A stretch of DNA of 64,000 nt from an uncultured Gammaproteobacteria bacterium (GTDB lineage Bacteria > Pseudomonadota > Gammaproteobacteria > Steroidobacterales > SZUA-146): contig CAWUKD010000003.1 in NCBI GenBank assembly GCA_963922815.1, forward strand, positions 1,718 to 65,717. The letters run 5' to 3'. Shown here piece by piece: positions 4,636-56,620 of the stretch (its first letter is position 1; each line of letters begins with the position of its first letter). A program made the translations under genes and the position numbers. The notes below the pieces were generated by a model. The model ran no database searches. It saw nothing but the letters and a program-made list of their open reading frames with translations, and was not told the DNA's origin.

Positions 4636-5220
4636 TCAGGCCAGGTCGGAGGCCAGCGACCCTCGTACTTCCGGAGACAGCTCCACGGGAGCCACGGGAT
4701 AGCGCGGATGGCTTGTTCCAAAACTCACGGGCGCACCGGATTTTACCGCTGCGATGACGTCTTCGGGCAGCTGGAACCTGAGGAAATGAACCGCTGACGT
4801 CTTCTTGTCGTCTGCGCGACTCAGGTCTTCGTCCGCGATCGCAATGACTTTTTCGCAGTCGCCAACCTGAACCCATATCTGATTTTCGATATCGAACAGC
4901 TCCACCAGCTTGGCCCGACGCTCTTCCACATCATCGTACTGGATCATCATGGTGGCCTTCCAGTTATCCCCATCCGGAATCAAAGGGTTGTACGACTCGA
5001 GCTCCTCCTCAATACCGTCGGCTTCGAAGATCTTCTCAATCCGCAGCATTTCCTGGATCTGGTATTGAATGGTGAGCCTGTTCTCGAACAACAGCAGAAC
5101 GTGATCACCCAGGTACACATCCCGGCGCTTCTTGAGGTCAAGAACCCTGGCTCGGAACGCCGGGCGTTCTTCGGCGTATTGCTCAAGTGACATTAGCGAA
5201 CTTCGTTCCAGATGGGTCAT
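4636..5220 (-). CDS. DUF3501 family protein
   Basis: 194 aa. The N-terminal LMSLEQYAEERPAFRARV...LLFENRLTIQYQIQEML pattern matches my recollection of DUF3501. It sits in the typical context next to a CCG Fe-S protein and a rubrerythrin. Confidence 0.7.
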   Translation of the reverse strand: MTHLERSSLMSLEQYAEERPAFRARVLDLKKRRDVYLGDHVLLLFENRLTIQYQIQEMLRIEKIFEADGIEEELESYNPLIPDGDNWKATMMIQYDDVEERRAKLVELFDIENQIWVQVGDCEKVIAIADEDLSRADDKKTSAVHFLRFQLPEDVIAAVKSGAPVSFGTSHPRYPVAPVELSPEVRGSLASDLA

Positions 5221-5253
5221 ACGTAAATTCCTGTTAACAGTGACTCGTAATAC

Positions 5254-6594
5254 CTAGATACCGTACGCGGTGCGCAACAGTTTCAGCGGATGAGTCGGAG
5301 GGGTCTTTTCTTTCATCACACTCTCGATCTGATGTCCGGCCATCGGACAGTCAGAGGCATAGTGATCCGGATCGGCTTTATTGATTCGGGTGACGACCGG
5401 TCGGCAAATCTTGACCGCCGCTTCACGAAACTCCTTTTTGACACCATAGGTGCCATCGTGTCCGGAGCAACGCTCGATAACCTCAACCGTGGTATCCGGA
5501 ACCAGCGCCAGCATATCGCGCGTTTTTAGCCCGATATTCTGTACGCGCAGATGGCAGGCAGCGTGGTAGGCCACCTTTCCGAGGGGTTTTGCAAAATTTG
5601 TATTCAGATGACCCGACTTGTGTCTGAGCAACAGGTACTCAAACGGATCAAACATGGCTTTCTGAACCTTGAGCACCAGCGGATCGTCCGGAAACATCAG
5701 CGGCAGCTCCTGTTTGAACATCAGCACGCAGGATGGAACCGGTCCCACAATGTCGTACCCCTGATCAACCAGTGCCGCCAACGCCGGCACGTTGACGTCC
5801 TTGGCTCTGGCAACACTCTCGAGGTCACCCAGTTCAAATTTGGGCATGCCGCAGCACTGTTCTTTATCGGCCAGCGTAACTTCAATGCCGTTGTGCTCGA
5901 ATATGGCCTTGAGATCATGTCCCAGATCCGGCTCGTTGCGGTTGCCGTAACACGTGGCAAACAGCGCCACTTTGCCGGTGGTGGTGTCGTTGGCAACAGG
6001 AGCCGAAGTTGGACCTGGTGATTTCACCGCCGTTTTTCTAAACGACCTGGAATGATATTCCGGCACCGGAGCGTCCTGAGCAATACCCAGCGTCTTATCG
6101 AGAAGCTTGCGCCCGACACCCGTCTTGTTAAACGCGTTAACCGTCTGCGCAATTACCGGAATGCCTGCCAGACTGCCCACTTTGTCGGTACTCGCCAGAA
6201 TGCGATTGCGACGCGATGTGCCTTCGGCTTTGAACTTGAACGCCTTGGCACGAAGCATTAAGTGAGGGAAATCAACGTTCCATTCATGCGGTGGCACGTA
6301 TGGACACTTGGACATGTAACACATGTCGCACAGGAAACAGTGATCAACTACATCCCAGTAGACCGGCTTTGGAACGCCGTCTACTTCCATCGTGTCCGAC
6401 TCATCCACCGCATCAAACAACGTGGGGAATGAATTACACAAGTTAAAGCAACGACGGCAGCCGTGACAAATATCGAACACCCGTTCAAGTTCATTGAACA
6501 AGCTTTCTTCGTTATAAAACTCGTCGTCCTTCCACTTCAGTGGATGACGCGTTGGTGCTTCCAGACTGCCCTCACGGCGATGTGAGCCTGACAT
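5254..6594 (-). CDS. (Fe-S)-binding protein, HdrD/GlpC-like (two ferredoxin-type 4Fe-4S motifs + CCG cysteine-rich domains)
   Basis: 446 aa. It has CHGCRRCFNLC and CFLCDMCYMSKCP cluster motifs, and downstream Cys-rich segments (QCCGMP, PSCVLM, RCSGHDG) typical of CCG domains. Confidence 0.8.
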   Translation of the reverse strand: MSGSHRREGSLEAPTRHPLKWKDDEFYNEESLFNELERVFDICHGCRRCFNLCNSFPTLFDAVDESDTMEVDGVPKPVYWDVVDHCFLCDMCYMSKCPYVPPHEWNVDFPHLMLRAKAFKFKAEGTSRRNRILASTDKVGSLAGIPVIAQTVNAFNKTGVGRKLLDKTLGIAQDAPVPEYHSRSFRKTAVKSPGPTSAPVANDTTTGKVALFATCYGNRNEPDLGHDLKAIFEHNGIEVTLADKEQCCGMPKFELGDLESVARAKDVNVPALAALVDQGYDIVGPVPSCVLMFKQELPLMFPDDPLVLKVQKAMFDPFEYLLLRHKSGHLNTNFAKPLGKVAYHAACHLRVQNIGLKTRDMLALVPDTTVEVIERCSGHDGTYGVKKEFREAAVKICRPVVTRINKADPDHYASDCPMAGHQIESVMKEKTPPTHPLKLLRTAYGI

Positions 6595-6674
6595 ACACGA
6601 CCCCTAACGTTGTACCGGCGATTCGGCCGGTGTAAATCCGATACTTTTAGAATGCGCTGAGCCTGTCTTAATCA

Positions 6675-6701
6675 AGAACGGGTGGCTGCGCCACCCGTTC
6701 T
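6675..6701 (-). terminator. Perfect 10-11 bp hairpin between the rubrerythrin and Fe-S genes (possible terminator or attenuator)
   Basis: GAACGGGTGG-ctgcg-CCACCCGTTC. On the minus strand it is followed by TTGATTAAG, only a weak U-tract. Confidence 0.45.
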
Positions 6702-6781
6702 CAAGGACTTTAGCCGGGTCCTGCGCTTTCGCTCAGAGGCCCGACTCGACTCATCCAGGAAGTCTCACGAAAGGAGACTAC

Positions 6782-7201
6782 TCAGGCGTCCAGATTGTCC
6801 AATGCTTTCTGGAAGCGATTGGCGTGCGAGCGCTCGGCTTTTGCCAGCGTTTCGAACCAGTCGGCAATTTCGTCAAAGCCTTCATCACGAGCGGCTTTGG
6901 CCATGCCCGGATACATATCGGTGTATTCGTGGGTTTCTCCGGCAATAGCCGCTTTGAGGTTGTCTGCCGTCATACCGATGGGCAAACCAGTCGCCGGATC
7001 ACCGGTTTCTTCCAGATACTCGAGGTGCCCGTGCGCGTGGCCCGTTTCGCCTTCAGCAGTCGAACGGAACACGGTGGCAACGTCGTTATACCCTTCGACG
7101 TCGGCTTTTGCCGCGAAATAAAGGTATCGGCGATTAGCCTGAGATTCACCTGAAAACGCGTCTTTAAGATTTTGTTCAGTCTTGCTACCGCTAAGGGACA
7201 T
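6782..7201 (-). CDS. Rubrerythrin-family diiron protein lacking the rubredoxin-like domain
   Basis: 139 aa. It has two ExxH diiron motifs (EGETGH, AERSH) plus the paired Glu residues (GESQA, GETHE). The protein contains no cysteine, so there is no FeCys4 domain. Confidence 0.85.
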
Positions 7202-7270: not shown

Positions 7271-7374
7271 TTAAGTCCAAGATTCAATCAATCAGTTTAC
7301 ACTCTATCTATGCGCAATTGACCCCCGAATGCGGGCTGTGTAGTTTAGTCGCGCATCAACGTGGAGATTGGTCT

Positions 7375-7608
7375 GTGGCAGCAAAAAACACAACGAAAAA
7401 ACCCGAGTTCGAACAATCGCTTAAAAAACTTGAAGGGATTGTCGAACAACTTGAGAGCGGAGACTTGCCGCTGGAGAAGGCGGTAAAACAGTGGGAAGAA
7501 GGTATGAAGCTGCGCGATTCCTGCGAAAAAATATTGGCGAAGACTCAACAAAAAGTAGACGTACTGCTTAACAAGAGCGGCGATACCGAGCCTTTCGACA
7601 ACGACTAG
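7375..7608 (+). CDS. xseB: Exodeoxyribonuclease VII small subunit
   Basis: The [26 protein letters not shown] motif is typical of XseB. I prefer the GTG at 7375, preceded by GGAG at 7363-7366, over the track start at 7318. Confidence 0.85.
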
Positions 7609-7636: not shown

Positions 7637-8437
7637 ATGACCACCAAATCGACCGACATTGAAGACGTTCAGAACCGGGCGGACACCCGCCAGATACCCA
7701 TCCACAAAGTGGGTATCAAGGATATTGAACACCCGGTTCGCGTGCTGGACCGCAGTGGTGGCGAACAGTCCACCGTTGCAAGATTCAACATGTTCGTGGA
7801 GCTGCCTCATAACTTCAAGGGCACTCACATGTCGAGGTTCGTGGAAATTCTCGAAGAAAACGACACGGAAATATCCGTCCACTCGTTCCGCGATATCGTA
7901 ACCCGCATGCGCGATCGACTCGAAGCCGCTCGCGGCCATCTGGAAATGACTTTCCCGTATTTTATGAAGAAAAGCGCACCTGTATCCGGCGTGCAAAGCC
8001 TCATGAACTATCAGGTTACATTGATTGGCGACTGTAGCGAAAACCGCTGCGACATCACCACCAAGGTAACCGTACCTGTGACAAGCCTCTGCCCGTGCTC
8101 GAAAGGTATTTCAGACTACGGTGCCCACAATCAGCGTTCGCACATTACGATTTCTGCGCAAACCAGTGAATTCGTCTGGCTCGAGGAGTTTGTTGATATC
8201 GCTGAACGCCAGGCCTCCAGCGAACTGTACGGCATCCTGAAACGCCCCGACGAGAAACTGGTGACCGAACGCGCCTACGACAACCCGAAGTTTGTCGAAG
8301 ATCTGGTACGGGATATTGCGGTTGAATTGAATAACGATACGCGAATTATTGCGTATACGGTAGAAGCCGAAAACTTCGAGTCGATCCACAATCATTCAGC
8401 CTATGCGCTGATTGAACGGGACAAGCGCACCGACTAA
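7637..8437 (+). CDS. folE2: GTP cyclohydrolase IB (FolE2 type)
   Basis: 266 aa. The N-terminal [25 protein letters not shown] and GTHMSRF motifs are as in FolE2/MptA-family enzymes. Confidence 0.85.
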
Positions 8438-8623
8438 ACGGCCGGGCACGAACCAGCACCGACAATAAGACGGCGACCCTGAAATCAGGTGTGAAATTTG
8501 ACGATCTCTCGCTCGCGAGGGCGTCTGGGGTGAAACACCATCGCCTATCAGTCTGGCTATCACCAGGCGTGGCCCGGCATCTGACCGAAAACCCGTTTCA
8601 GCGTATCTAAAACGGCTACCTAA

Positions 8624-9925
8624 CTACCCCGCTGCCGCGCGCTCTTTTTCCAGGCGTGTAATGGTCGCTTCCTGTCGTGCGGCTCGCTGCAATCGCTCAA
8701 TAAGTGCGCGCAGGAACGTTTTGGTGAAGTGCAGCTGACATGCCGTTGACACTTGTTCAAGCAATGTTGAACTTACGCGAAGCAGGGTTACCTGGTCGTG
8801 CGCCGAAATTGACGCCGTGCGACGAGCGGCCGTGACGTAGCTGGTCTCACCAAAACAGTCGCCCTTGTGTAACGAGCCCACCGTGTTGCCGCTTTGCTGA
8901 ACGTCGACTTGCCCTTCCACGATTATATAGAAGCGATCATCGAGCTCGCCCTCCCGAACAATTTCCTGCCCGGCCCCGTAAGTACGCCAGTCGCTGGCAC
9001 GCAATACTTCCCATATTTCTGCGTGAGAAAATTCATGAAAGAACGACAGCTGTCGCAGCAGCTCAAAGCGCTCCTGTTTGTCAATTCGATCTTCGTCATC
9101 CTTGAGCTCTTGAAACGCCTTAGTCAGTGCAGCCGCAAATTCTTTTCCGTTCGCAAAACGCTTTCCCGGTTCCTTATGCATGGCTTTGGCGACGATCTGC
9201 TCAAGAATCTCGGGAACGTCAGGTCTAATCGTGTGCATTGGCTGCGCCGTTGCGTAAACGATTTGATGCAACAGTTTGGTCAGGTTTGACGCGCGGAACG
9301 GTCGAACACCCGTCAGCAGCTCATACATGACCGCGCCGAGTGAATAGACGTCCGATGCCGTAGTGATTTCGGCAGACTGCACCTGCTCCGGAGACATGTA
9401 ACTCGGGGAACCGGCAATACCGCGGATCTGGGAATGTTCGGCATTCTTAACGATGGCGATACCAAAATCGATGATGCGTACATCGCTGTTAGTCGTCAGC
9501 ATGATATTGCTTGGCTTGATATCGCGATGCACTACTCCGCGACTGGCCGAATACTGAAGCGCCTTGGCACATTTGAATATGATCTGAACAACATCGTTAA
9601 CGCGAAGCAGGTTATCTGGCTTGCAGTAGGCTGAGAGCGTGCGGGCACCGTGAATATGTTCCATGACAACATAGTAGTTGCCGTCTTCCTCGCCGGCATC
9701 ATAGATTGGCAGGATATTGGGGTGCTGCAACATGCCAACGATATTGGCTTCGTTAAAAAACATCTTGCGGGAAACAGCTGCGTCTTCTTCGCTTTGAGAC
9801 GAATTGTTGTAAACTTTGATGGCAACGTCGCGCCCATAGAACGGATCATGCGACAAATAAACATTTCCAGTGCTACCACGACCAACTTCTTTGATGATCA
9901 TGTATTTGCCGATTTTGTCCAACAT
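8624..9925 (-). CDS. Hanks-type Ser/Thr protein kinase with C-terminal cyclic-nucleotide-binding domain
   Basis: 433 aa. Kinase motifs are GRGSTGNVY (G-loop), AIK, HRDIKPSN, DFG and SPE. The C-terminal cNMP domain has FGE...RRTAS (phosphate-binding-cassette-like). Confidence 0.85.
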   Translation of the reverse strand: MLDKIGKYMIIKEVGRGSTGNVYLSHDPFYGRDVAIKVYNNSSQSEEDAAVSRKMFFNEANIVGMLQHPNILPIYDAGEEDGNYYVVMEHIHGARTLSAYCKPDNLLRVNDVVQIIFKCAKALQYSASRGVVHRDIKPSNIMLTTNSDVRIIDFGIAIVKNAEHSQIRGIAGSPSYMSPEQVQSAEITTASDVYSLGAVMYELLTGVRPFRASNLTKLLHQIVYATAQPMHTIRPDVPEILEQIVAKAMHKEPGKRFANGKEFAAALTKAFQELKDDEDRIDKQERFELLRQLSFFHEFSHAEIWEVLRASDWRTYGAGQEIVREGELDDRFYIIVEGQVDVQQSGNTVGSLHKGDCFGETSYVTAARRTASISAHDQVTLLRVSSTLLEQVSTACQLHFTKTFLRALIERLQRAARQEATITRLEKERAAAG

Positions 9926-9949
9926 AGGAATCTCGATGCGTTAGTATAT

Positions 9950-10453
9950 TTAGATTAGCGTCGCCCCCCATGAGAGACCCGCCAGGCACAGAGCCGCGAA
10001 CAGCGCTGCTACAACGTCATCAAGCATAATCCCCAATCCGCCGTGTAGTCTGTGATCCAATTCGCGAATTGGCCAAGGTTTTACGATGTCAAAAAACCGG
10101 AAAAAACCAAACCCGAGTAACCACCACAGCCACGTATCCGGAACAAATGCGACGGCGATCACATAGCCGACAATTTCATCCCAGACTATTCCGCCGTGAT
10201 CGTGTACACCAAGCTTTTTTGTGGCGTAACCGCAGATAAAAATACCGGCAATTGACATAACCAGGATGATGGTCCATTCCTGTACGGCCGTGAGCCCACT
10301 TAACATAAATGCGAAGGGAATGCCGATGAGCGTGCCGGCGGTTCCCGGTGCTTTTGGCGCAAGTCCGGTTCCGAATCCAAACGCCAGTATCATGATCGGA
10401 TCGGTGAACACCTCACGCGGCGCAACCGGGCGGTTTGTTTTCTTTTCACTCAC
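9950..10453 (-). CDS. pgpA: Phosphatidylglycerophosphatase A
   Basis: 167-aa membrane protein with FGFGTGLAPKAPGTAGT and DIVKPWPI motifs, in the canonical thiL-pgpA context. Confidence 0.88.
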   Translation of the reverse strand: MSEKKTNRPVAPREVFTDPIMILAFGFGTGLAPKAPGTAGTLIGIPFAFMLSGLTAVQEWTIILVMSIAGIFICGYATKKLGVHDHGGIVWDEIVGYVIAVAFVPDTWLWWLLGFGFFRFFDIVKPWPIRELDHRLHGGLGIMLDDVVAALFAALCLAGLSWGATLI

Positions 10454-10462
10454 GGTGTGCGC

Positions 10463-11416
10463 TTAGCTTTCAGTCGCGAAATGGTCGTGACCATGAACAT
10501 TTACCGCATGGGGTTTGCCATCCAGCGTAAAGTTTAGCCCGGACCCTTCGTTGATGACGCCGATACACTGACACCTGACGACAAGGTTGTCGCAAACGTC
10601 TTCGAATTCTTCTGCATTATCCGGAGGCACGGTGACACACAGTTCGTAATCGTCGCCACCGCACAGGGCCAGATAACGGGCTTCGCCTGGCGAAAAGCCA
10701 TTGCGTAAAATCGAGGACATCGGCAAATCTTCAAGTACGACCTGCGCACCCACATCGGACGCCTGTAATAAGTGTCCAAGATCCTGGCCCAGACCATCCG
10801 AGACGTCGATTGAAGCGGTTACCAGGTTACGAACCGCAGCGCCCAGAGCAACTCGCGGTTCCGGATAGAGAAAGCGATCAATAAGAAAACTATGCCCGTC
10901 ACCCCGCGTCATCGCTCGCAGCCCCGCGGCCGCGTCACCCAGGGTTCCTGTGATGTAAATCCGGTCCCCGGGACGGGCGCCAGTGCGCAGCGTGTGCGCG
11001 TGCGTATCGACGTGGCCGGTCACATGCACCGTGACGACCAAAGGACCGCTGACCGTATCGCCACCCACCAGGCTGACACCGTGTGCCTGGGCGCATTCGC
11101 TAAACCCCGCCGCGAAGTCGGCCAACCAGGCGTGATCAAGATGCGGCATCGACAGGCTCAAACTGGCCCAGGCCGGATCCGCACCCATAGCGGCGATATC
11201 GCTAAGATTTACCGCCAGAGAACGATGCCCCACGGATCGCGCCGGCGTGTTTACGGGAAAGTGGATGGATTCGACCAGCGTGTCCATCACGCTGACAAGG
11301 TTTCTTGACTCGGGAGGCTCCAACAGAGCGCCATCATCACCGACGCCAACCAGAACATCAGAGCGTGGCGCTCCAATGTCGCGAAAATAATCTCGAATCA
11401 GATCAAACTCGCCCAT
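10463..11416 (-). CDS. thiL: Thiamine-monophosphate kinase
   Basis: 317 aa. It has the GEFDLI N-terminus and AIR-synthase-like fold motifs, in the nusB-thiL context. Confidence 0.9.
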   Translation of the reverse strand: MGEFDLIRDYFRDIGAPRSDVLVGVGDDGALLEPPESRNLVSVMDTLVESIHFPVNTPARSVGHRSLAVNLSDIAAMGADPAWASLSLSMPHLDHAWLADFAAGFSECAQAHGVSLVGGDTVSGPLVVTVHVTGHVDTHAHTLRTGARPGDRIYITGTLGDAAAGLRAMTRGDGHSFLIDRFLYPEPRVALGAAVRNLVTASIDVSDGLGQDLGHLLQASDVGAQVVLEDLPMSSILRNGFSPGEARYLALCGGDDYELCVTVPPDNAEEFEDVCDNLVVRCQCIGVINEGSGLNFTLDGKPHAVNVHGHDHFATES

Positions 11417-11439: not shown

Positions 11440-11886
11440 TTAGCGTTTCTCGTGTACACGCAGCTCAGCCGCTGCACGGTCCAGAATGGCATTGACATAC
11501 TTGTGCCCGTCGGTTGCACCAAATCGCTGCGCCAGTTCGACCGCTTCGTTGATAACCACCTTGTACGGAACATCAATGCGATGACGCATCTCGGTTAACG
11601 CCACCATGATGATAGACATCTCCAGCGGATCAAGCTGTGATACGTCGCGATCGGCGTGACTGGTGATACACGCGTGGTTCGCTTCGACGTCTTTAAGCGC
11701 CTTGCTCAACAGCTCATCAAAATAGTCCGGATCGGCGTCGGCGTATTCACGCTTTTCCATATACTGGCGCTTCAGCTCGCTGACCGTTTCAGGGTTTACG
11801 TGCCATTGATAGAGCGCCTGCATGGCCAGGCGACGAGCCCGGCTCCGCTTGCGAATAACCCGCTGCTGATCCGTTTTTCCCGACAT
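11440..11886 (-). CDS. nusB: Transcription antitermination factor NusB
   Basis: 148 aa with ARRLAMQALYQW and INEAVELAQRFG motifs. It lies downstream of ribH. Confidence 0.93.
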   Translation of the reverse strand: MSGKTDQQRVIRKRSRARRLAMQALYQWHVNPETVSELKRQYMEKREYADADPDYFDELLSKALKDVEANHACITSHADRDVSQLDPLEMSIIMVALTEMRHRIDVPYKVVINEAVELAQRFGATDGHKYVNAILDRAAAELRVHEKR

Positions 11887-14173: not shown

Positions 14174-15319
14174 TTAACTCGTTGTTGGGTTAGTGTCGCG
14201 GTCTTTGGATTCGACGCCCCGCGCCCGGGTTTCAAACACCATCCTGGTGCACGTGCCAACGCGAGTGGCTTCGAGCAACTCAAGGTCAATAACCTGATCC
14301 ATCGACGTGATCTCGCCAAGGTCCACCATGCCACGCGCACCCTGCCCCATGAGTCTGGGAGCCTGGTAGACGACGATCTGATCTGCCAGCCCCGCACGAA
14401 TAAACGCACCGCTCAATTGCGGGCCCGCTTCCACCATCACCTCGTTAATCTGACGGCGACCGAGGTCGTCCAGCAGCGCCGCCAGATTCAATCCTGTGCC
14501 GCTGTCATCCGCTGGCAAACTTGCATGTTCGAATTCCACGCCGTCAGGAACGGTGGCTGACAGCGCCGTATACACCAGTGAACGGCGTTGAAAGACCTGG
14601 GCGCTCAGCGGGCTGCGAAGCGTACTGTCCAGTACCACAGCGCGGGGCTGGGTCACCTCCAGATCCGGCGCAAGCCCGCGCGCGGTCAGCTGCGGATCGT
14701 CCGCAATGACGGTGCCGGCACCGGTCACTACCACATCGCTGGCTGCCCGCAGTTCATGCACATCAGCGCGCGCCTGCGCACACGTGATCCATTTACTCTT
14801 GCCGTTGGCCAACGCCGTAGCGCCATCAAGACTTGCAGCAATTTTGACGCGGACCAGGGGACGTCCCGTCACCTGCCGGTGAATGAAACCCCGGTGCAGT
14901 TTTCGCGCCTCATCGGCAAGCAGTCCGATCTCAACGTCAATCCCTGCGTCTCGCAGGCGTGCGAAACCCTGACCGCTGACTTGTGGAAACGGATCTTCAA
15001 TTGCCGCAACTACCCGACTGACTCCGGCCTCGATCAGCGCATCACAGCAGGGGCCGGTTCGCCCCCGATGCGCGCAGGGCTCAAGCGTTACGTAGGCGGT
15101 GGTCCCAACAGGGTCAGAACAGGATGCCAGCGCCATGATTTCCGCGTGTGGTTCGCCGGGCCGCTGAGTCCACCCCTCTCCAATAATACGGGAATCCCGA
15201 ACCAGTACGCAGCCGACGCTGGGGTTGGGCGACGCCGAGTAGCTACCGCGAGTCGCCAATTCAAGCGCGCGACGCATAAAGCCGAACATGGCATCGGTAT
15301 ATATCGGGTCCGTGGGCAT
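14174..15319 (-). CDS. ribD: Bifunctional diaminohydroxyphosphoribosylaminopyrimidine deaminase / 5-amino-6-(5-phosphoribosylamino)uracil reductase
   Basis: It has the deaminase HAE...PCAHRGRTGPC zinc motif and a C-terminal reductase domain. I chose the ATG at 15319 (MPTDPIY...); the track's longer ORF to 15460 would overlap nrdR. Confidence 0.9.
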   Translation of the reverse strand: MPTDPIYTDAMFGFMRRALELATRGSYSASPNPSVGCVLVRDSRIIGEGWTQRPGEPHAEIMALASCSDPVGTTAYVTLEPCAHRGRTGPCCDALIEAGVSRVVAAIEDPFPQVSGQGFARLRDAGIDVEIGLLADEARKLHRGFIHRQVTGRPLVRVKIAASLDGATALANGKSKWITCAQARADVHELRAASDVVVTGAGTVIADDPQLTARGLAPDLEVTQPRAVVLDSTLRSPLSAQVFQRRSLVYTALSATVPDGVEFEHASLPADDSGTGLNLAALLDDLGRRQINEVMVEAGPQLSGAFIRAGLADQIVVYQAPRLMGQGARGMVDLGEITSMDQVIDLELLEATRVGTCTRMVFETRARGVESKDRDTNPTTS

Positions 15320-15323
15320 GGTT

Positions 15324-15821
15324 TTATTTCTGCGTCGGCAGCAGCGGAAGCTGTTCGTCGGCCGTCGTGCTGCTTTCCTGCAACCGTTCGACCTCTTCAG
15401 CAAATTCAGCGGCATCCTGGAAGCGTCGATAGACCGAGGCGAACCGTACGTAGGCCACATCGTCCAGTTTGCGCAGTTCGTTCATTACCAGCTCGCCAAC
15501 GCGTCGCGAAGGCAGTTCCCGCTCGCCCGCTGTGCGCAGCTCGTGAGTGATGCGGTTTACCGCCACCTCGATTTCGGACGCAGGAACCGGCCGCTTTTCA
15601 AGGGCTTTTACAATCCCGGAACGCAGTTTCTGCTCATTAAACGGCTCGCGACGCCCATCGCTCTTGACGAGATAGGGCATAACGAGTTCAGCGGTTTCGA
15701 ACGTTGTAAAGCGCTCAGCGCAGGCCAGGCACTCTCTTCTGCGCCGCACCTGATTGCCTTCGGCGGCCAGGCGCGAATCGTTCACTTTGGTCTCGAGGTT
15801 GCCGCAAAATGGACAGTGCAT
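15324..15821 (-). CDS. nrdR: Transcriptional repressor NrdR
   Basis: 165 aa with an MHCPFCG...[12 protein letters not shown] zinc ribbon and an ATP-cone. Confidence 0.93.
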
Positions 15822-25271: not shown

Positions 25272-26012
25272 CTAAGCGGAATCGGTAATGGACAGGAAGT
25301 CGATAACCGCTACCGAAATGTTGTCGCCGCCACCACCGCGCAGTGCCAGTTCAACCAGCCGCTTGCAGGCCCGCTCCGGGTCGCTCTGATTCATGCCTTC
25401 CAGAATGTCATTGTCTTTGAGGTCTTTGTAAAGGCCATCGCTGCACAACATGATGCGATCGCGATTTTTAAGCGGTTGCAGGTTGGCGTCCAGATTCAGG
25501 GTGCTTGAGCCGCCAACGGCCCGCGTGATCACGTTGGCCATGGGATGTGATTCGGCGTCTTCTCTCGGGATTTCCCCCAGCGCAATCAGCTCTTCAACCT
25601 GACTGTGATCCCGGGTGATCTGTTCGAGCTTGCCGTCACGCAGCCGGTAGACCCGGCTGTCGCCGGCCCACAGGCACAGGCAGTAACGACGAAACGCCAG
25701 CAGCGCAACCACTGTGCTGCCGATGGTGCTGGATGAGCTTTGCGCTTTTTCAAACAGGGCCGTGTTAACGTCTTGCAACCGGTTCTCTACAGTCGCCAGA
25801 AAGACATCAGGTTCTGCGTCGCTTTTGACCTCGCCGAGCTGCTCCACAATCAGGCGGCTCGCGTAGTCTCCGGCCTGGTGACCACCCATGCCGTCTGCGA
25901 CCACCCACAGGCCCAGATGCGGGGCATCAAGAAAAGCGTCTTCGTTGACCTTTCGGACCAGACCAGGATCGGTCAGGGCCGCAGAACGCCACTCAAACGA
26001 TTCGACAATCAT
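25272..26012 (-). CDS. PP2C-family Ser/Thr protein phosphatase
   Basis: 246 aa with NEDAF, ADGMGGH and the C-terminal GGGDNISV metal-binding motifs. Confidence 0.88.
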   Translation of the reverse strand: MIVESFEWRSAALTDPGLVRKVNEDAFLDAPHLGLWVVADGMGGHQAGDYASRLIVEQLGEVKSDAEPDVFLATVENRLQDVNTALFEKAQSSSSTIGSTVVALLAFRRYCLCLWAGDSRVYRLRDGKLEQITRDHSQVEELIALGEIPREDAESHPMANVITRAVGGSSTLNLDANLQPLKNRDRIMLCSDGLYKDLKDNDILEGMNQSDPERACKRLVELALRGGGGDNISVAVIDFLSITDSA

Positions 26013-26152: not shown

Positions 26153-26248
<96 letters not shown>

Positions 26249-28783: not shown

Positions 28784-31528
28784 TCAGCCAGCTGATTTAT
28801 CCATGATCGCCAGGTTAATTGGAACGCCCGTCAGGAATGTTTCTCGTCTGTTCGCGTCATGTATCGACTCGGACTTGCGAATGACCTCGGCACGCGCCCT
28901 GGCAAAGTACGACGTGGCCTCCTGCTCTTTTCCTGCTGCGTGTAACACGCGCCCATAGTGAAACAAAATTTCTTCCTGTCGCAGCGCAGGCATCTGGCCT
29001 TCGGATTCTACCAGCTCGATGGCTTCTTTCCCGAACAGCAGCGCGGCATCGACATTACCAATTCGCAGCTGATATCGACTCATCAGACTCAGTGCCATCA
29101 CTTCACTGCGCACCAAACCGGACTCTCTGGATTTGGTAATACTTCGATACAGCACGCTGAACGCCTTGTCCGATTCAAACGGCGTTACGGCCTCGTCGAT
29201 CAAATACTCAGCGTACTGGTTTCGCACCAGCGACACGAGATCCTCCTGATCCAGCTTTTCACTCAGCACCTCACCGCGTGCCAGCCATTTTTGAGCGTTA
29301 CCTACATCGCGTTTTTCCAGGTAAAGCTTGCCGAGCAACGCCATATTGCAGGCAATCCATGGATGACTCAGATCCTTTTTATTCGTCTTGGTAACGCCGT
29401 CCAGCAATATTTGTTCAGCCTCATCAAACCTTCCTTCGACGATGAGTAATTGCGACAGGTAGTTTTGCGCCTGAATCAGGTCGTTCTCCATTTGCATGTC
29501 GAGCAATCCATCGAATCCCTTTCGAAGATAGTCCTCCGCAACATCAAACTCGCCGCTATCGAATTCTCCTACTCCGACGTAAACCAGCAAGAGATTAAAG
29601 TAACGCTTAACATCTACCGAATCGGCGTCCTTCATGGCAGGCGCCAGCTCTTTCTCATACACCTCCAGAGCCTGTCTTCGCACGGTCAGGCTTTCACGAA
29701 GATTCTCCTTTGCCAGTTGACTACCCAGTTGCAGCATGGTGAAAACCAGGGTCGTTGGGTCGTCGACCTGTTCGGCAATATGTACCGCTTCGCGAAGATG
29801 GCCCATCGCTTTGGCCGTCTCGCCAATACCGACCAGCAGATGGCCGTGCAATGCCTTGAGGTTGGCAAGTGCGATGGTGTCTTCCAGTTCGGCAGCAACT
29901 CTTTCTGCCGTGGATGCCACATCAATGCGTTTCAGGCGATTTTCGCGGTCCCCGGACCCTTTGGCAGCCAGCAGCAGCAGCAATGACAACTCAACCGTCA
30001 GCCGTGACGTCTGGTCACCGTCAGAAAGCTGCTGCAGCGATGCGAGACCTTTGTGACACAGATTCACGGCCTCCTGAACAGCACCATCCTTATACGAGGA
30101 TCTTGCCGCAATACGATAAAAATCTGCCGCGGATTCGTGTTGTAGCCCCTGCTCAAAATGATGCGCAATGTCGATCAGAAGCTTGCGAGGAGCGCGGCCC
30201 TTGTCATGCCAGGTTTGCTGCAGAGCTTCGGCGACTTCCTGATGATAGAGAATTTTCTGACGTGGCGTTAATCTCGCATAAAGAGCCTGGTGCAGCAGAA
30301 CGTGTTCAAACATATAAAGCTCAGACTTGTTCTGCACCCAGTCTTCGCCATCCTGCACCGAAATGAGATTGTGCCGGTCTCGAACCCGGCGAAGCCGCGT
30401 GAGGACATCGTGTTCGCGACTGTCCAGCAGTCTGGCAAGCACAACGGAGAGAAACTTTGGTCCCTGTACGGCGCCAATCTCCAGCAGCTCTCTTTCATCA
30501 TCCAGAAGCTGGGAAATGCGCTGTTCGACCAGGGCCTCGACGCTTTCAGGCACAGGCAGCGCAGCCAGCTCACCCTGAACGGACCACTCTTCGCCATCGA
30601 CTGATATTTCTCCTGCGAGTTTGAAGTGTCCATCTTTGGTACTGACGATCTTTTCAAGTTCCAGCAGACTCAGGTATTGCTCGACGAACATGGGATGACC
30701 CGATGAGATATGCATTAACCAGCCAATAAACTCATCCGGCACGTGTGGCCCGTATCGTTTCTTCGTGTACCGCTCAACTTCGGCTCTTGGCAGCACGTTC
30801 AGCTGTATATTATTCGCGTGGCCACGTGTCACAGCTTCCAGAATTGCGGCGCGAAGCCGATGGTTTTCGCCAACGTGAGTGGCTCGGTACGTAACCACCA
30901 GGACCACGTTCTGAGACAGAATTTTGGGAATCAGCCGGCGCACTAACTGGCAGGACGTCTCGTCAATCCAGTGCGCGTCTTCAACCATGAGTACGAGCAC
31001 ATCATGCTCTTGCGCGATTCTCGCCACCGTATTGCAATACTGTGTGGACATGGTCTCGATCTGCTCTTCCGCACTCTTCTTCAACAGCAGCTCGCTGGTC
31101 AGTTTCGCGGTTCTGTATGTCGCGCCAATGGTAGAGCCCACAAAAGGAATGACCTGCAGCCAGTCGGCTGCCGTTTCAGACGCAATTTTCTTAAGCAGGT
31201 TACCGGAGTCCGGTTTGAGGTTCTTGGTCGCCAGCGTCTCAAATATCTCGAGCAAAGGCTGATAGGCGCTGGTTTCGCCCGTTTGTTCGTAGCAGTAGCC
31301 AATCGCCACATTCTCGTGAGTACACAGACCTTGCGCTACCGCCTCACTGATGGCCTCTGCGACAAGTGAGGACTTACCGATCCCTGGCGGACCGTCCAGG
31401 AAAACCGTGCTGCCCTGCTGGTTTCGGGCTTGCCCTATGCGCGCCACAAGATCTTTGATCTCTTGCTCTCTGCCAACGTATAGCGAATCACCCACGACTA
31501 CCCCCCTTCTCTTTACGATTGCGCGCAC
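28784..31528 (-). CDS. AAA_16-type P-loop NTPase with long C-terminal TPR/helical-repeat region (STAND-like, no recognisable output domain)
   Basis: 914 aa. It has Walker A GPPGIGKSS near residue 46, a Walker-B-like VLVLMVEDAHWID, the VTYR segment typical of AAA_16, and then about 600 aa of TPR-like repeats. The gap to folB is 13 nt. Confidence 0.8.
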   Translation of the reverse strand: MRAIVKRRGVVVGDSLYVGREQEIKDLVARIGQARNQQGSTVFLDGPPGIGKSSLVAEAISEAVAQGLCTHENVAIGYCYEQTGETSAYQPLLEIFETLATKNLKPDSGNLLKKIASETAADWLQVIPFVGSTIGATYRTAKLTSELLLKKSAEEQIETMSTQYCNTVARIAQEHDVLVLMVEDAHWIDETSCQLVRRLIPKILSQNVVLVVTYRATHVGENHRLRAAILEAVTRGHANNIQLNVLPRAEVERYTKKRYGPHVPDEFIGWLMHISSGHPMFVEQYLSLLELEKIVSTKDGHFKLAGEISVDGEEWSVQGELAALPVPESVEALVEQRISQLLDDERELLEIGAVQGPKFLSVVLARLLDSREHDVLTRLRRVRDRHNLISVQDGEDWVQNKSELYMFEHVLLHQALYARLTPRQKILYHQEVAEALQQTWHDKGRAPRKLLIDIAHHFEQGLQHESAADFYRIAARSSYKDGAVQEAVNLCHKGLASLQQLSDGDQTSRLTVELSLLLLLAAKGSGDRENRLKRIDVASTAERVAAELEDTIALANLKALHGHLLVGIGETAKAMGHLREAVHIAEQVDDPTTLVFTMLQLGSQLAKENLRESLTVRRQALEVYEKELAPAMKDADSVDVKRYFNLLLVYVGVGEFDSGEFDVAEDYLRKGFDGLLDMQMENDLIQAQNYLSQLLIVEGRFDEAEQILLDGVTKTNKKDLSHPWIACNMALLGKLYLEKRDVGNAQKWLARGEVLSEKLDQEDLVSLVRNQYAEYLIDEAVTPFESDKAFSVLYRSITKSRESGLVRSEVMALSLMSRYQLRIGNVDAALLFGKEAIELVESEGQMPALRQEEILFHYGRVLHAAGKEQEATSYFARARAEVIRKSESIHDANRRETFLTGVPINLAIMDKSAG

Positions 31529-44569: not shown

Positions 44570-45154
44570 ATGAATGTCTCTACAAAATCGGCCATAGCAT
44601 TGGCCATATCTGCAGCTTTTGCAGCACCGATGGCCTCTGCTGACGTCGTCAGCTTTGACGTCACGGGCATTAACAGCTGGGACGACGCTACCGATCCATT
44701 CGGTGCGAACGAATCGTATGTTTTTGACGTTGCGGCAGCGCTGGGTCTGGCATCCGGTACGGCTGTGACCATTACGGGAATCGGCTGGGACGTATCCATC
44801 GAAACCGTGGGTGCCTCGTGGCTCAGCGAAGCTTCAGTTGGCATAAACGGGGAAATCACACTCGCACCGGGTGCTGGTGATGATGCTCCTGGCGTAGCTT
44901 CGTACACCAGCGGCGGAATCATTGATCTGGCATCAATCCCACTGCCTGACCTGCTACTGGCCGATGGCCTGCTCGTTCTGGACTTCTTCGAAGGCTATGA
45001 CGATGTGGTTGGCGCGATCGACGCGACCTGGACCGGAGGCACTCTGGACTTTGATGCGTTTGAAGCCGCACCCATACCACTGCCAGCGGCGTTCCCGCTG
45101 CTGCTCACCGGCCTCGTCGGTTTGTTTGCAGCACGACGTCGTCGTGTAGCCTGA
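44570..45154 (+). CDS. Secreted protein with VPLPA-CTERM-type (PEP-CTERM-like) sorting signal
   Basis: 194 aa with a signal peptide ending AAPMASA. The C-terminus IPLPAAFPLLLTGLVGLFAARRRRVA gives motif + TM helix + Arg cluster. It has its own terminator at 45199-45238. Confidence 0.7.
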   Translation: MNVSTKSAIALAISAAFAAPMASADVVSFDVTGINSWDDATDPFGANESYVFDVAAALGLASGTAVTITGIGWDVSIETVGASWLSEASVGINGEITLAPGAGDDAPGVASYTSGGIIDLASIPLPDLLLADGLLVLDFFEGYDDVVGAIDATWTGGTLDFDAFEAAPIPLPAAFPLLLTGLVGLFAARRRRVA

Positions 45155-49765: not shown

Positions 49766-50341
49766 TCAGGTGTCGATAATACCGACAGAACCCAGACTGA
49801 TGAAGCTGCCTAACAGAATGAGCCAGGCAATCGGTAACGCCACGTGCACGCGCCGACTGGAACTGGCGATCCCAACAATCGCCAAAAAGAGCATACTGGC
49901 TACAAAAATATAATAGCGCGGCGGCATATTGCGAAGCCCGGCCAACTCTTTACCCAGGGTCTCGGGAATATCAAGCAGCCATGCGATTATCATAAGACTA
50001 AAAAACCATACCCGGTTTCCGAAGAAATACGCTTCCATGTCAATGTCTTTGTCCATATCGTAGGGGTATAACATCGCGGACATCAAAAACAGCACAAGCG
50101 CGTAGCTGGTAATACCCAAATAGTACAGCGCAGACCATTGCTCCAGACCGCTCCACCAGAACATGCTCCACCAGATCATGAGCATCTGCAGCAGAATATT
50201 GAACGTCCAGAGCGCATGGGGCAGACACAGCCGGGTCGTCTCGCGATTTTGAATCAGCTTGCTCGCGCCAACGGCGAGGTGCGTGATTCCAAGCCCCATG
50301 ATTACTGAAATCAGCACACCAATGTATTCAAATACGCCCAT
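49766..50341 (-). CDS. Hypothetical polytopic membrane protein
   Basis: 191 aa with about 6 hydrophobic helices, rich in Trp/Met. No family recognised. Confidence 0.5.
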   Translation of the reverse strand: MGVFEYIGVLISVIMGLGITHLAVGASKLIQNRETTRLCLPHALWTFNILLQMLMIWWSMFWWSGLEQWSALYYLGITSYALVLFLMSAMLYPYDMDKDIDMEAYFFGNRVWFFSLMIIAWLLDIPETLGKELAGLRNMPPRYYIFVASMLFLAIVGIASSSRRVHVALPIAWLILLGSFISLGSVGIIDT

Positions 50342-52031: not shown

Positions 52032-53143
52032 CAGCTGTACTCCGGATCGAGCGCATGCAAATAGTCAGCGATAACAGGACGAAACCGATCCATGTCGACC
52101 AAAAACGAATCGTGGCCCTGAATGGAATCCAGGATGGAATAGGTGACGTCAATATTCTGTTCGCGCATGCGATCAGCCAGTTCCTGCTGCTGATGCGGTG
52201 GAAACAGCGCATCCGTCTCTACTCCAATGATCAACGTACTTTCGAGCTTCAGCAATTCGAAGCTGCACGCCAGACTGCCCCCGTGGTCGGCCGCGTCGTA
52301 GACGTCCATCGCCCGAGACAAATACAAATAGCAGTTGGGATCAAAGCTGCCAACAAACTTCGCCGCGTGCGCACTGAGGTAGGACTCCACTTCGAACTCG
52401 GCGCTGAACGCATAGTCGTTAGGCCTGGTCTGCGTAATGCGTTCACGCCCGAATCGCTTCTCCCATTCGGCCGCCGACCGATAGGTGATCATGCCGAGCT
52501 TGCGCGCCAGCGTCATGCCCGTCGCGGGCAAATCATCGTCGGAGTATTCACCCTGCTTCCACTTTGCATCGGCGCAGATCATTTCACGCTGCAGGGAACG
52601 AAGTGAAATGGCGTACGGAAGTGCCCGGCAGGAAGAAGAAATGGTGATCAGGTGACGCACATGATTTGGATACATCATGCAAAACGCGAGTGCGGTCATA
52701 CCACCCATGGAAGGTCCAACGGCGCAATGTAACGTCGCCACACCGAGATGCTCAATCAACAGCGCGCCGCAGTGCCCAATGTCGTCCAGTGACAGCACCG
52801 GAAAATCCAGTCCGTAGCGCTTGCCTGTTGCAGGATTAATGCTGGCAGGTCCCGTGGTTCCGAAACAGCTGCCCAGCGAATTAAAACATACGACAAAATA
52901 TCGATCGGTATCGATCGGCTTGCCGGGCCCCACCATATCTTCCCACCAGCCCGGGCTCTGGTCGAGCGTCGATGAGCTGGCGTGAGCCGAGGGGGACAGC
53001 CCCGTAAAAATCAGAACCGCGTTGTCCCGTTTGGCGGACAATTCGCCCCACGTTTCATAAACGATCTCGAGACCTTCAATTACGCCGCCGTGACGCATCC
53101 TGAAGGGCTGTTCATAGGTGTAAACTTGATGAGCTAAAGACAT
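52031..53143 (-). CDS. MetX-like alpha/beta hydrolase (homoserine O-acetyltransferase family, atypical)
   Basis: 370 aa with the nucleophile elbow GPSMGG and overall MetX-like layout. However, the N-terminal region reads FTGLSPSAHA where canonical MetX has a HALTG..H-type segment. No metW follows. Confidence 0.7.
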   Translation of the reverse strand: MSLAHQVYTYEQPFRMRHGGVIEGLEIVYETWGELSAKRDNAVLIFTGLSPSAHASSSTLDQSPGWWEDMVGPGKPIDTDRYFVVCFNSLGSCFGTTGPASINPATGKRYGLDFPVLSLDDIGHCGALLIEHLGVATLHCAVGPSMGGMTALAFCMMYPNHVRHLITISSSCRALPYAISLRSLQREMICADAKWKQGEYSDDDLPATGMTLARKLGMITYRSAAEWEKRFGRERITQTRPNDYAFSAEFEVESYLSAHAAKFVGSFDPNCYLYLSRAMDVYDAADHGGSLACSFELLKLESTLIIGVETDALFPPHQQQELADRMREQNIDVTYSILDSIQGHDSFLVDMDRFRPVIADYLHALDPEYS

Positions 53144-53237
53144 GATTCGAACGTCGACGCAAAAGAAACAGTGTAATGGATGCCCGGCCGTTCCCCAAGA
53201 CCGTTGGCCATCCTGGAATCACTCCGACCCGGCTTCC

Positions 53238-54119
53238 CTAGCCCGGGCAATTCTCTCGTCGCGTTTGTTCGGCCTCGCTCATCCACTCGTTAAACTGCTC
53301 GATACGGGTCTCGGGCGACGGGTGTGTCGACATGAATTCATTCGGCGTGCCCCCGCTTCGGTTTTCACCCATACGCTGCCACAGTGCCGGCGCTTCGGTC
53401 GGGTCATAGCAGGCCCGCGCCAGCAGCCTCAGGCCGATGTAGTCCGCCTCGGATTCATGTTTGCGCGAAAAAGGCAGCAGCACACCGTATTGACTGCCCA
53501 CACCGAGCGCCCCCTGAACCGCTCGTTGCGCCGAATAACCCATGTCTCCCACGACCACGGCGGCCACCATGCTGCCAAGTCGAACCAGCTTCTGGTAGGC
53601 CATGCGCTCTGCGCCATGTCGCGCAATGGCGTGAGCAATCTCATGCCCCATAATCGCGCTGAGTCCATCGGAGTTTTCCGCCACCGGAAGCAGTCCGGTA
53701 TACACGGCCACTTTGCCCCCGGGCAGCGCGAATGCGTTGGCCTGGTCGGAGCGAATCACATTAAATTCCCATTCGAAACCGGGATCAAGACCTTCTGCCC
53801 GCGCCGCTTCAACCAGCTTCCAGCCGATGGCCCTGACCTGCCTGACCACGTCGCTGTCCGACATGACGTTGCTGCGGCTCAGAATATCCTGGTAGGACTG
53901 CAGGCCCAGCGCCATTTCCTCATCACGCGACATATCCACGAGCTGGGAACGTCCGGTTACCGGGACGGTTTCCTGATTGGCCACCCAGTAGTAGGCAAGA
54001 TAGAGTGCAAACAGAACTATCGGAATCATCCGTACGCTGATGCCCTTTCCCGGACCAACGCGCAAGCTGCCCAGTCCGCTCCCGCGGCGTCTTCCAAACG
54101 GTGACCTGCGATACGCCAT
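53238..54119 (-). CDS. M48 family metallopeptidase
   Basis: 293 aa with an N-terminal TM helix and HEIAHAIARH (HExxH), plus the downstream E of the M48 pattern. Confidence 0.85.
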   Translation of the reverse strand: MAYRRSPFGRRRGSGLGSLRVGPGKGISVRMIPIVLFALYLAYYWVANQETVPVTGRSQLVDMSRDEEMALGLQSYQDILSRSNVMSDSDVVRQVRAIGWKLVEAARAEGLDPGFEWEFNVIRSDQANAFALPGGKVAVYTGLLPVAENSDGLSAIMGHEIAHAIARHGAERMAYQKLVRLGSMVAAVVVGDMGYSAQRAVQGALGVGSQYGVLLPFSRKHESEADYIGLRLLARACYDPTEAPALWQRMGENRSGGTPNEFMSTHPSPETRIEQFNEWMSEAEQTRRENCPG

Positions 54120-56447: not shown

Positions 56448-56620
56448 AACGCCCTGTATTCCAAGCGGCACGGTGGTGCCTGAGAGAGGAACGGATCCGG
56501 ATGTCTGATCTATCCGCCTGTTCTATGGTCAAATGCCTGGTGGTGTGCGAGCAAGAATCCGGTTCTAAACAAACCTCCACACAAACCTGTCGGTTGAATC
56601 GCAACAGGCAGGTGGCTTCA

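Follow-up and report, generated by a model that had tools for sequence, protein, structure and literature searches.

Can a bacterial protein kinase carry its own cyclic-nucleotide switch, and does it mean anything that the gene for such a protein closes a string of core biosynthetic genes? Both questions are raised by a locus in a 64,000-nucleotide stretch of DNA from an uncultured Gammaproteobacteria bacterium (assembly GCA_963922815.1, contig CAWUKD010000003.1, positions 1,718 to 65,717), here called the window. The gene in question (8624..9925, minus strand) lies directly downstream of pgpA and encodes a protein of 433 amino acids (aa) in which a Hanks Ser/Thr kinase is fused to a cyclic-nucleotide-binding (CNB) domain, as judged from the open reading frame (ORF) and its translation, from Pfam matches to Pkinase and cNMP_binding, and from AlphaFold2 (AF2) models. 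Direct control of protein phosphorylation by cyclic AMP (cAMP) or cyclic GMP (cGMP) is a hallmark of eukaryotic signalling, and the cyclic nucleoside monophosphate (cNMP) signals of bacteria are known to work mostly by way of CRP-type transcription factors, along with a few channels and a few enzymes. The reading we favour, which we hold to be probable with considerable room for doubt, is that of a cytoplasmic PknB/StkP-like kinase with a built-in C-terminal cNMP sensor, encoded by a vertically inherited gene at the end of an operon string.

A Hanks kinase fused to a CNB domain

The start of the gene is unambiguous, since an in-frame TAA lies five codons 5' of the ATG and the alignments of relatives begin at residue 1-4. 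The kinase domain spans residues 8-258 (9152..9904, minus strand) and was recognised by Pfam (Pkinase, PF00069; E 6.5e-51, 173.7 bits against a cut-off of 31.7), Foldseek and phmmer. Direct reading of the translation gave GRGSTGNV, VAIK (K37), E59, HRDIKPSN (D135, N140), DFG (153-155) and SPE (178-180), with the G-loop glycines at G15, G17 and G20, K137 in the catalytic loop and D153 in DFG; the Hanks catalytic signature (GxGxxG, the VAIK Lys, the alphaC Glu, HRDxKxxN, DFG and an APE-like motif) is complete. In phmmer searches against solved structures the top kinase relatives were StkP, PknE, PknA and PknB (E 1e-45 to 1e-37, about 30% identity in the catalytic domain), and the first eukaryotic matches were of the NEK, PLK and CAMK types (NEK1, BRSK2, PLK4, MARK; ~1e-31). 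No AGC kinase was present among the best 60 sequence matches to solved structures or among the top 50 fold matches. The AF2 model of the full-length protein (mean pLDDT 84.3) contains the bilobal kinase fold, and its top Foldseek matches were to the kinase domain of PknB (TM(target) 0.84-0.90); its pTM of 0.72 hints at a defined arrangement of the two domains. By its sequence, the N-terminal half is a catalytically complete Hanks Ser/Thr kinase of the PknB/StkP type. It differs from StkP, PknA, PknE and PknB themselves in that those are membrane-anchored with extracellular PASTA or other sensors, whereas the protein described here appears soluble with an intracellular CNB domain. A PASTA kinase was accordingly rejected as a classification: the NCBIfam model NF033483 (PknB_PASTA) scored 265.5 bits against a cut-off of 450 and covered the kinase part only, with neither a transmembrane (TM) segment nor PASTA repeats present.

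The CNB domain (8750..9025, minus strand) was likewise found by several routes, namely Pfam (cNMP_binding, PF00027, residues 314-392; E 5.1e-16, 58.9 bits against a cut-off of 27.5), the eight strands of the AF2 model, Foldseek and phmmer. Residues 259-433, modelled separately from the full-length protein for the fold search, gave an eight-stranded barrel with flanking helices (pLDDT 85.3; DSSP of the AF2 models), and all of the top 50 Foldseek matches of this model were CNB domains (E ~4e-9), headed by PfPKG CNB-D with cGMP, PKA RIalpha CNB-B with cAMP, MloK1, CNG and HCN. At the sequence level, phmmer against the PDB returned Plasmodium PKG (best to CNB-D), PKA regulatory subunits, PKG I, MloK1 and HCN2/4, with E from 1e-31 to 1e-8. 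The C-terminal half is therefore a CNB domain of the PKA/PKG/channel type and not of the CRP type; classification as a CRP/FNR regulator was rejected, given that no helix-turn-helix domain was found and that the CRP model of NCBIfam scored 26.1 against a cut-off of 266. Within the domain, the phosphate-binding cassette occupies residues 359-375, GETSYVTAARRTASISA (8801..8851, minus strand), as delimited from conservation and from comparison with published cassettes (PMC2246266), and can be read directly as GDCFGE...ARRTAS over residues 355-372. Its 17 residues equal the canonical cassette length tabulated in that survey (PMC2246266), and it retains the Gly-Glu pair and the Arg-[ST]-Ala-[ST] end.

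The two domains are joined by a helical linker from the kinase C-lobe to the CNB domain (residues 259-300; 9026..9151, minus strand; AF2 helices 260-278 and 282-292), and the protein ends in a long helix (residues 393-433, the alphaB/alphaC lid; 8627..8749, minus strand; AF2 helix 394-432) that is a possible dimerisation helix in the model. A Pfam scan of the 433-aa protein returned only Pkinase, cNMP_binding and weaker overlapping kinase-fold matches (PK_Tyr_Ser-Thr, ABC1, APH and Pkinase_fungal), and neither Pfam nor NCBIfam profiles detected PASTA, FHA or TPR domains in it. No TM segment was found, the top Kyte-Doolittle 19-residue mean being 1.24, and the protein is for this reason predicted to be soluble. 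An initial annotation of this DNA had described a soluble single polypeptide with a complete Hanks core, a C-terminal CNB domain with an apparently intact phosphate-binding cassette, and no TM, PASTA, FHA or TPR element. This description holds: every quoted motif was recovered by Pfam and by direct reading, hydropathy and profile scans agree on the absent elements, profile search and structure prediction place the domain boundaries and model both folds (the CNB barrel with matches to known CNB structures), and the cassette is canonical in length and residues and is conserved among relatives.

To follow this conservation we used two sets of relatives: a close set of 193 aligned sequences at 61-93% identity, built from 120 database proteins and 72 genes from genome loci, and a wide set (n = 74) from a search of 1.84 billion cluster representatives (50% identity clusters), of which the best 150 were considered. 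Among these best 150, 73 are about 430 aa long, align end to end at 36-69% identity and share the architecture. In the close set G15, G17, G20, K37, E59, H133, R134, D135, K137, N140, D153, F154 and G155 are unchanged in 192-193 of 193 sequences; K37, E59, D135, K137, N140 and D153 in particular are found in all 193, and in 72-74 of the 74 diverse cluster representatives (K37 and N140 in 74, D135 in 72). A pseudokinase was rejected on the grounds that the catalytic residues are invariant among relatives. The activation segment from DFG to SPE (residues 153-180; 9386..9469, minus strand) is equally constrained, as S165 and the stretch 169-GIAGSPSYMSPEQ-181 are unchanged in 192-193 of the 193 relatives. 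Of the 74 wide-set sequences, 46 carry Thr at position 165 and 6 carry Ser. We take S165 to be the equivalent of PknB T171, on the basis of an alignment made by hand, and an activation-loop Ser/Thr at this position would be a further likeness to PknB; S165 is the predicted activation-loop autophosphorylation site.

The sensor half is conserved in much the same way. Of the cassette residues, F358, G359 and E360 are present in all 193 close relatives, R369 in 189, T370 in 159, A371 in 192 and T/S372 in 192, and in the wide set G359 is kept in 74 of 74, E360 in 68 and R369 in 61. In the close set the kinase domain has a mean identity of 73.5% and the CNB domain one of 68%; the corresponding values of the wide set are 44% and 36%. 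Selection per domain was judged in this way, by amino-acid conservation, with synonymous sites saturated at ~70% aa identity. Among the structured parts, conservation is lowest in the linker 259-300 (57.5% mean identity), and helix 393-415 (66%) is conserved equally with the CNB domain, only the last 18 residues (416-433, 17%) being variable. Because conservation of the CNB domain falls little short of that of the kinase domain, the sensor appears to be under selection and not a relic. Together, these comparisons indicate purifying selection on both halves of the protein, including the residues that hold the cyclic phosphate in known CNB domains.

The family is large. A scan of one genome per species found a relative in at least 595 species, and the best 80 species matches were metagenome-assembled genomes (MAGs) labelled Woeseiaceae, Steroidobacteraceae or unclassified Gammaproteobacteria. 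Two relatives deserve separate mention. One pgpA-linked orthologue (P0012; locus L081, 6001-7512) is 503 aa long and has an insertion of ~65 residues that splits its Pkinase match in two. The other relative (P0157; loci L084 and L085) is 40% identical with the same architecture, and lies directly after moaC, beside soxYZ and a molybdopterin oxidoreductase operon; its cluster includes WP_147799612.1 of Pelomicrobium methylotrophicum, a cultured host.

Position of the gene in the window and in relatives

In the window the kinase gene is the last of a co-directional string, glyA-nrdR-ribD-ribE-ribBA-ribH-nusB-thiL-pgpA-kinase, in which the successive gaps are 27, 1, 12, 49, 46, -1, 23, 9 and 24 nt, computed with the ribD start at Met47. 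The nearest members, all on the minus strand, are pgpA (9950..10453; Pfam PgpA E 1.4e-40), thiL (10463..11416; Pfam AIRS and AIRS_C) and nusB (11440..11886; Pfam NusB E 2.1e-28). The 24-nt spacer from the pgpA stop to the kinase start (9926..9949, minus strand), defined from the sequence, contained no promoter-like or terminator-like match in a consensus scan. The same scan placed a terminator-like hairpin 9 nt past the kinase stop (8593..8615, minus strand), a weak pattern match only, with a 9-pair stem that includes 4 G-C pairs and is followed by GTTTTCGGTC. Since the spacer lacks promoter and terminator matches and the hairpin follows the stop, the kinase gene is probably co-transcribed with the upstream operon in this organism. 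Rfam detected no riboswitch or other RNA family within the operon, its sole match being a tRNA-Ser elsewhere in the window. As for ribD, a start at the first ATG of the ORF (14174-15460, minus strand) gives an overlap of 137 nt with nrdR; the conserved part of the deaminase starts near Met47 (start at 15322), which would leave a 1-nt gap to nrdR.

This arrangement is widespread among relatives. In all 76 informative loci, that is, loci of Woeseiaceae and Steroidobacteraceae MAGs with usable upstream sequence, the kinase gene lies directly 3' of ribH-nusB-thiL and is co-directional with it. The gene pgpA stands between thiL and the kinase in 32 of the 76 and is absent from 44; the latter are mostly labelled Steroidobacteraceae, and their thiL-kinase spacer measures 81-322 nt, a distance at which co-transcription is less certain. 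The position behind pgpA also recurs in more distant relatives, at 55% identity to our protein with a gap of 15 nt (P0012), at 53% with 72 nt (P0126), at 46% with 4 nt (P0140) and at 44% with 10 nt (P0137). For P0140 it was predicted from a neighbour-joining tree and then borne out on look-up. Other family members (P0128, P0134, P0146, P0157 and P0144) are found elsewhere, including after a PAS-GGDEF-EAL gene, beside pgi and after moaC; at P0144 the upstream gene, which overlaps the kinase start, is neither pgpA nor thiL. The occurrence of the same architecture in such other contexts indicates that paralogous or translocated copies exist. Downstream of the kinase the neighbours vary among loci, being folE2, a rubrerythrin-CCG-DUF3501 cluster, or 2-4 kb of other genes. 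From the shared gene order, the placement after pgpA or thiL appears to predate the divergence of Woeseiaceae and Steroidobacteraceae, and this deep synteny shows that the kinase gene descended vertically. The initial annotation had placed the gene 24 nt after pgpA as the last of 10 co-directional genes with gaps of at most 49 nt, and had suggested that it may be coupled transcriptionally to core biosynthesis. Our computed distances agree with the former, and the latter is plausible given the spacer and the deeply kept position; the adjacency is retained by orthologues, as ribH-nusB-thiL-(pgpA)-kinase.

On the other side of the gene, folE2 (GTP cyclohydrolase IB; 7637..8437, plus strand; Pfam GCHY-1 E 2.8e-98) is convergent with the kinase gene, an orientation seen in many related loci too. 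In relatives a convergent folE2-dxs-ispA-xseB block faces the kinase (loci L082, L088 and L090). In the window, xseB (7318-7608, plus strand) is followed directly by folE2, and dxs and ispA are missing, which points to a local deletion or rearrangement. Further downstream of the kinase region, a trio of genes for rubrerythrin, a CCG-domain (heterodisulfide-reductase-like) protein and DUF3501 (4636-7201, minus strand) recurs at variable distance 3' of the kinase in many related loci.

Proposed cyclic-nucleotide control and its alternatives

For the kinase-sensor reading, we propose the following mechanism. That a ligand binds, which nucleotide it is, whether binding raises or lowers activity and what the kinase phosphorylates are inferred; the two domains, their folds and the conservation of the catalytic and phosphate-binding residues are what the computation shows. 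A molecule of cAMP or cGMP would bind the cassette, with G359 and E360 contacting the ribose and R369 and T370 the cyclic phosphate. The ligand would then reposition two conserved elements, the N-terminal helical motif 295-FFHxFSxxEIWE-306 and the alphaB/alphaC helix 393-415, and this shift would relieve an inhibitory contact with the kinase domain, alter dimerisation, or both. The activation loop would be autophosphorylated at S165, after which substrates would be phosphorylated. Adenylate cyclases are common in Gammaproteobacteria, and cAMP is for this reason the likelier ligand a priori. The Thr that follows the cassette Arg was considered as a marker to separate cAMP from cGMP and was set aside as not diagnostic, Ser or Thr being the norm in bacterial CNB classes and in the cAMP-binding MloK1 (PMC2246266). 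A gene for a PP2C-family Ser/Thr phosphatase of 246 aa (25272-26012, minus strand) lies ~15 kb from the kinase gene, just 3' of tRNA-Ser(CGA) (26156-26248, minus strand); DUF1820, an MBL-fold gene and purL lie downstream of it. We regard this phosphatase as a candidate partner of the kinase.

Several points speak against a cNMP-gated kinase tied to its operon, and they concern context, position and the cassette itself. As to context, no cyclase domain was found in the ~55 large ORFs scanned in the 64-kb window, a result that says little for the whole genome, and we found no functional study of a bacterial Hanks-kinase/CNB fusion in the open-access literature. As to position, nusB-thiL-pgpA facing dxs-ispA-xseB is an old and stable gammaproteobacterial neighbourhood, as in E. 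coli, and the conserved place of the kinase may therefore reflect inertia and not function. The thiL-kinase distance of 81-322 nt also means that a separate promoter may serve the organisms without pgpA. As to the cassette, its first half reads GETSY-V..A-RR in place of the usual GE[LM]AL...PR, with no Pro before the Arg, and AF2 confidence is low there (below 50 at residues 362-368), as might be expected of an unliganded site; because of this unusual first half and the unconfident model, affinity or specificity could be atypical.

The positional points lead to a first alternative, which we consider doubtful while giving it real weight: that the place after pgpA is inert synteny, and that the kinase, with a promoter of its own and a separate regulon, is tied neither by regulation nor by function to rib, nusB, thiL or pgpA. 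Besides the long gaps where pgpA is absent, this is what one would expect from the kinases of like architecture that stand in quite other surroundings (behind a GGDEF-EAL gene, behind moaC, beside pgi and elsewhere), and from a neighbourhood that is stable in Gammaproteobacteria even without the kinase. However, the 24-nt gap in the window holds no promoter-like match and pgpA is followed by no terminator, the gaps in other pgpA-linked relatives are 4-15 nt, and the upstream link is unbroken in 76 loci while the downstream neighbour has changed many times.

The cassette is the ground for the main rival to the proposed sensor function, namely that the CNB-like domain has a ligand other than cAMP or cGMP (a nucleoside, a cyclic dinucleotide or a 2',3'-cNMP), or no ligand at all, and acts as a constitutive autoinhibitory or dimerisation module. 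The CNB domains of trypanosomatid PKA reportedly bind nucleosides. The fold has been repurposed repeatedly elsewhere, with CooA binding haem and CprK chlorophenols (PMC2246266), and in our protein the atypical cassette half (TSYV against LAL[IL], the missing Pro, the unconfident AF2 model) and a long conserved C-terminal helix that could dimerise would both fit such a role. However, loss of the Gly-Glu pair or of the Arg in the cassette is typical of repurposed CNB domains (PMC2246266), whereas here G359, E360 and R369 are kept almost throughout the close set and persist at 36-53% identity, and the nearest solved domains are genuine cGMP or cAMP binders. We therefore judge this rival unlikely.

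The initial annotation had compared the protein with eukaryotic PKG in reversed domain order, and the comparison can now be divided. As in PKG, including that of Plasmodium, kinase and CNB sensor are on one polypeptide; PfPKG CNB-D is the best match of our CNB domain by both sequence and structure, and the cassette shares the R-T-A-[ST] of PKG in the published table (PMC2246266). In contrast to PKG, the kinase is PknB/StkP-like and not AGC, a single C-terminal CNB domain takes the place of the two to four that precede the kinase in PKG, and the leucine zipper, N-terminal autoinhibitory segment and AGC C-tail are lacking. Membership of the PKG/AGC kinases was rejected, as no AGC kinase is among the best 60 sequence or top 50 fold matches and the kinase domain is followed by a CNB domain rather than an AGC tail. 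The analogy thus stands as one of convergent logic and does not extend to the kinase type or the number and place of the sensors: with a PknB/StkP-type kinase, a reversed order and a single CNB domain, the likeness is convergent and the fusion independent. The PKA holoenzyme offers a similar picture. Its CNB domains belong to the same subfamily as ours (PKA RI matches at E 1e-15 to 1e-14), and the presumed logic, in which cNMP binding releases kinase activity, is shared; in PKA, however, sensor and kinase are separate subunits and inhibition runs through a pseudosubstrate in R. We identified no RRxS/A-type inhibitor sequence in our protein, and no systematic search for one was made.

A bolder version of our reading would see in this family an ancient, vertically inherited and convergent 'bacterial PKG' that is an integral, co-transcribed member of the rib-nusB-thiL-pgpA operon and couples cAMP or cGMP to an output tied to that operon. 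If this were true, the output might be, for example, phosphorylation of NusB, ThiL, PgpA or an enzyme of the riboflavin or folate pathway, or alternatively the setting of growth-rate-linked cofactor, ribosome or lipid synthesis, and an operon-coupled kinase of this kind would span a clade of abundant sediment and soil Gammaproteobacteria. We consider this version improbable.

Recent horizontal acquisition is more improbable still. The initial annotation had taken one 60-nt line (9061-9120) with 29/60 GC as a hint of foreign origin. Our recount of that line agrees, and the line is unremarkable, the G+C count of the 60-nt lines over the gene running from 25 to 39. The gene as a whole, at a GC of 0.518, is below the 0.563 of the window; however, its GC and its GC at third codon positions (GC3, 0.581) deviate by -1.2 and -1.0 standard deviations from the averages over 54 ORFs of the window (0.558 ± 0.032 and 0.628 ± 0.048), GC is equally low in the flanking genes (pgpA 0.526, folE2 0.519), and orthologues take exactly this place in two bacterial families and in relatives outside them, in every informative locus. 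Neither GC nor GC3 marks the gene as an outlier, and the suggestion of foreign origin is not upheld. Least credible of all is an anti-phage defence kinase akin to MAD6 of MADS or PglW of BREX, as the partial NCBIfam matches (antiphage_MADS6, 165.6 bits; BREX_PglW, 91.1 bits) fall far under the thresholds of 460 and 990 and extend over no more than the generic kinase domain, and the neighbours are housekeeping biosynthetic genes with no defence partners present; membership of either system was rejected by both scores and gene context.

Place among known fusions and further features of the window

Single-chain control by a CNB domain has precedents in bacteria. The cAMP-regulated acetyltransferase KATmt (Rv0998) of Mycobacterium and the MloK1 and SthK channels likewise have a bacterial CNB domain that is fused to an output and controls it allosterically, and MloK1, at 30-33% identity, ranks among the top matches to our CNB domain both by sequence and by structure. 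Bd1971 of Bdellovibrio, a cAMP-sensing EAL phosphodiesterase, is another single-chain CNB-regulated protein (PMC6717892). What sets our protein apart from these enzymes and channels is its output, a Hanks kinase. Fusions of this kind have been catalogued: bacterial CNB domains fused to kinases are listed in the 'Other_bacterial' CNB class of the census by Kannan et al. in 2007 (PMC2246266), and a 2024 census of Ser/Thr kinases (STKs) in Planctomycetota counts CNB/cNMP among the STK-associated domains (PMC11032199). Neither census gives a ligand, mechanism or genomic context, and the pgpA-linked clade and its conservation are undescribed there; database entries for the family read only 'serine/threonine protein kinase'. 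The protein is thus an uncharacterised member of a catalogued architecture and not a new kind of system. What is new is a large and tightly conserved family with a sensor that looks fully competent, and the finding that one clade has kept the gene, through a deep divergence, as the last member of the rib-nusB-thiL-pgpA string.

Biochemical confirmation would make the family a bacterial and independently assembled counterpart of PKG or PKA, and it would gain in interest if gating by cNMP, or a functional link with the operon, proved true. Woeseiaceae are among the most abundant marine-sediment bacteria. The fixed position at the operon end and the small size of the soluble protein offer a concrete experimental handle, with Pelomicrobium, Woeseia and Steroidobacter as cultured relatives.

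Elsewhere in the window, four ORFs of 320, 459, 194 and 191 aa (53142-54104, plus; 55092-56471, minus; 44570-45154, plus; 49766-50341, minus) have no Pfam match at E<1e-4. A protein of 914 aa, with no recognisable effector or DNA-binding domain at the same threshold, combines an AAA_16 (STAND-like NTPase) domain with MalT-like TPRs and is encoded at 28784-31528 (minus strand), between folB and guaA.

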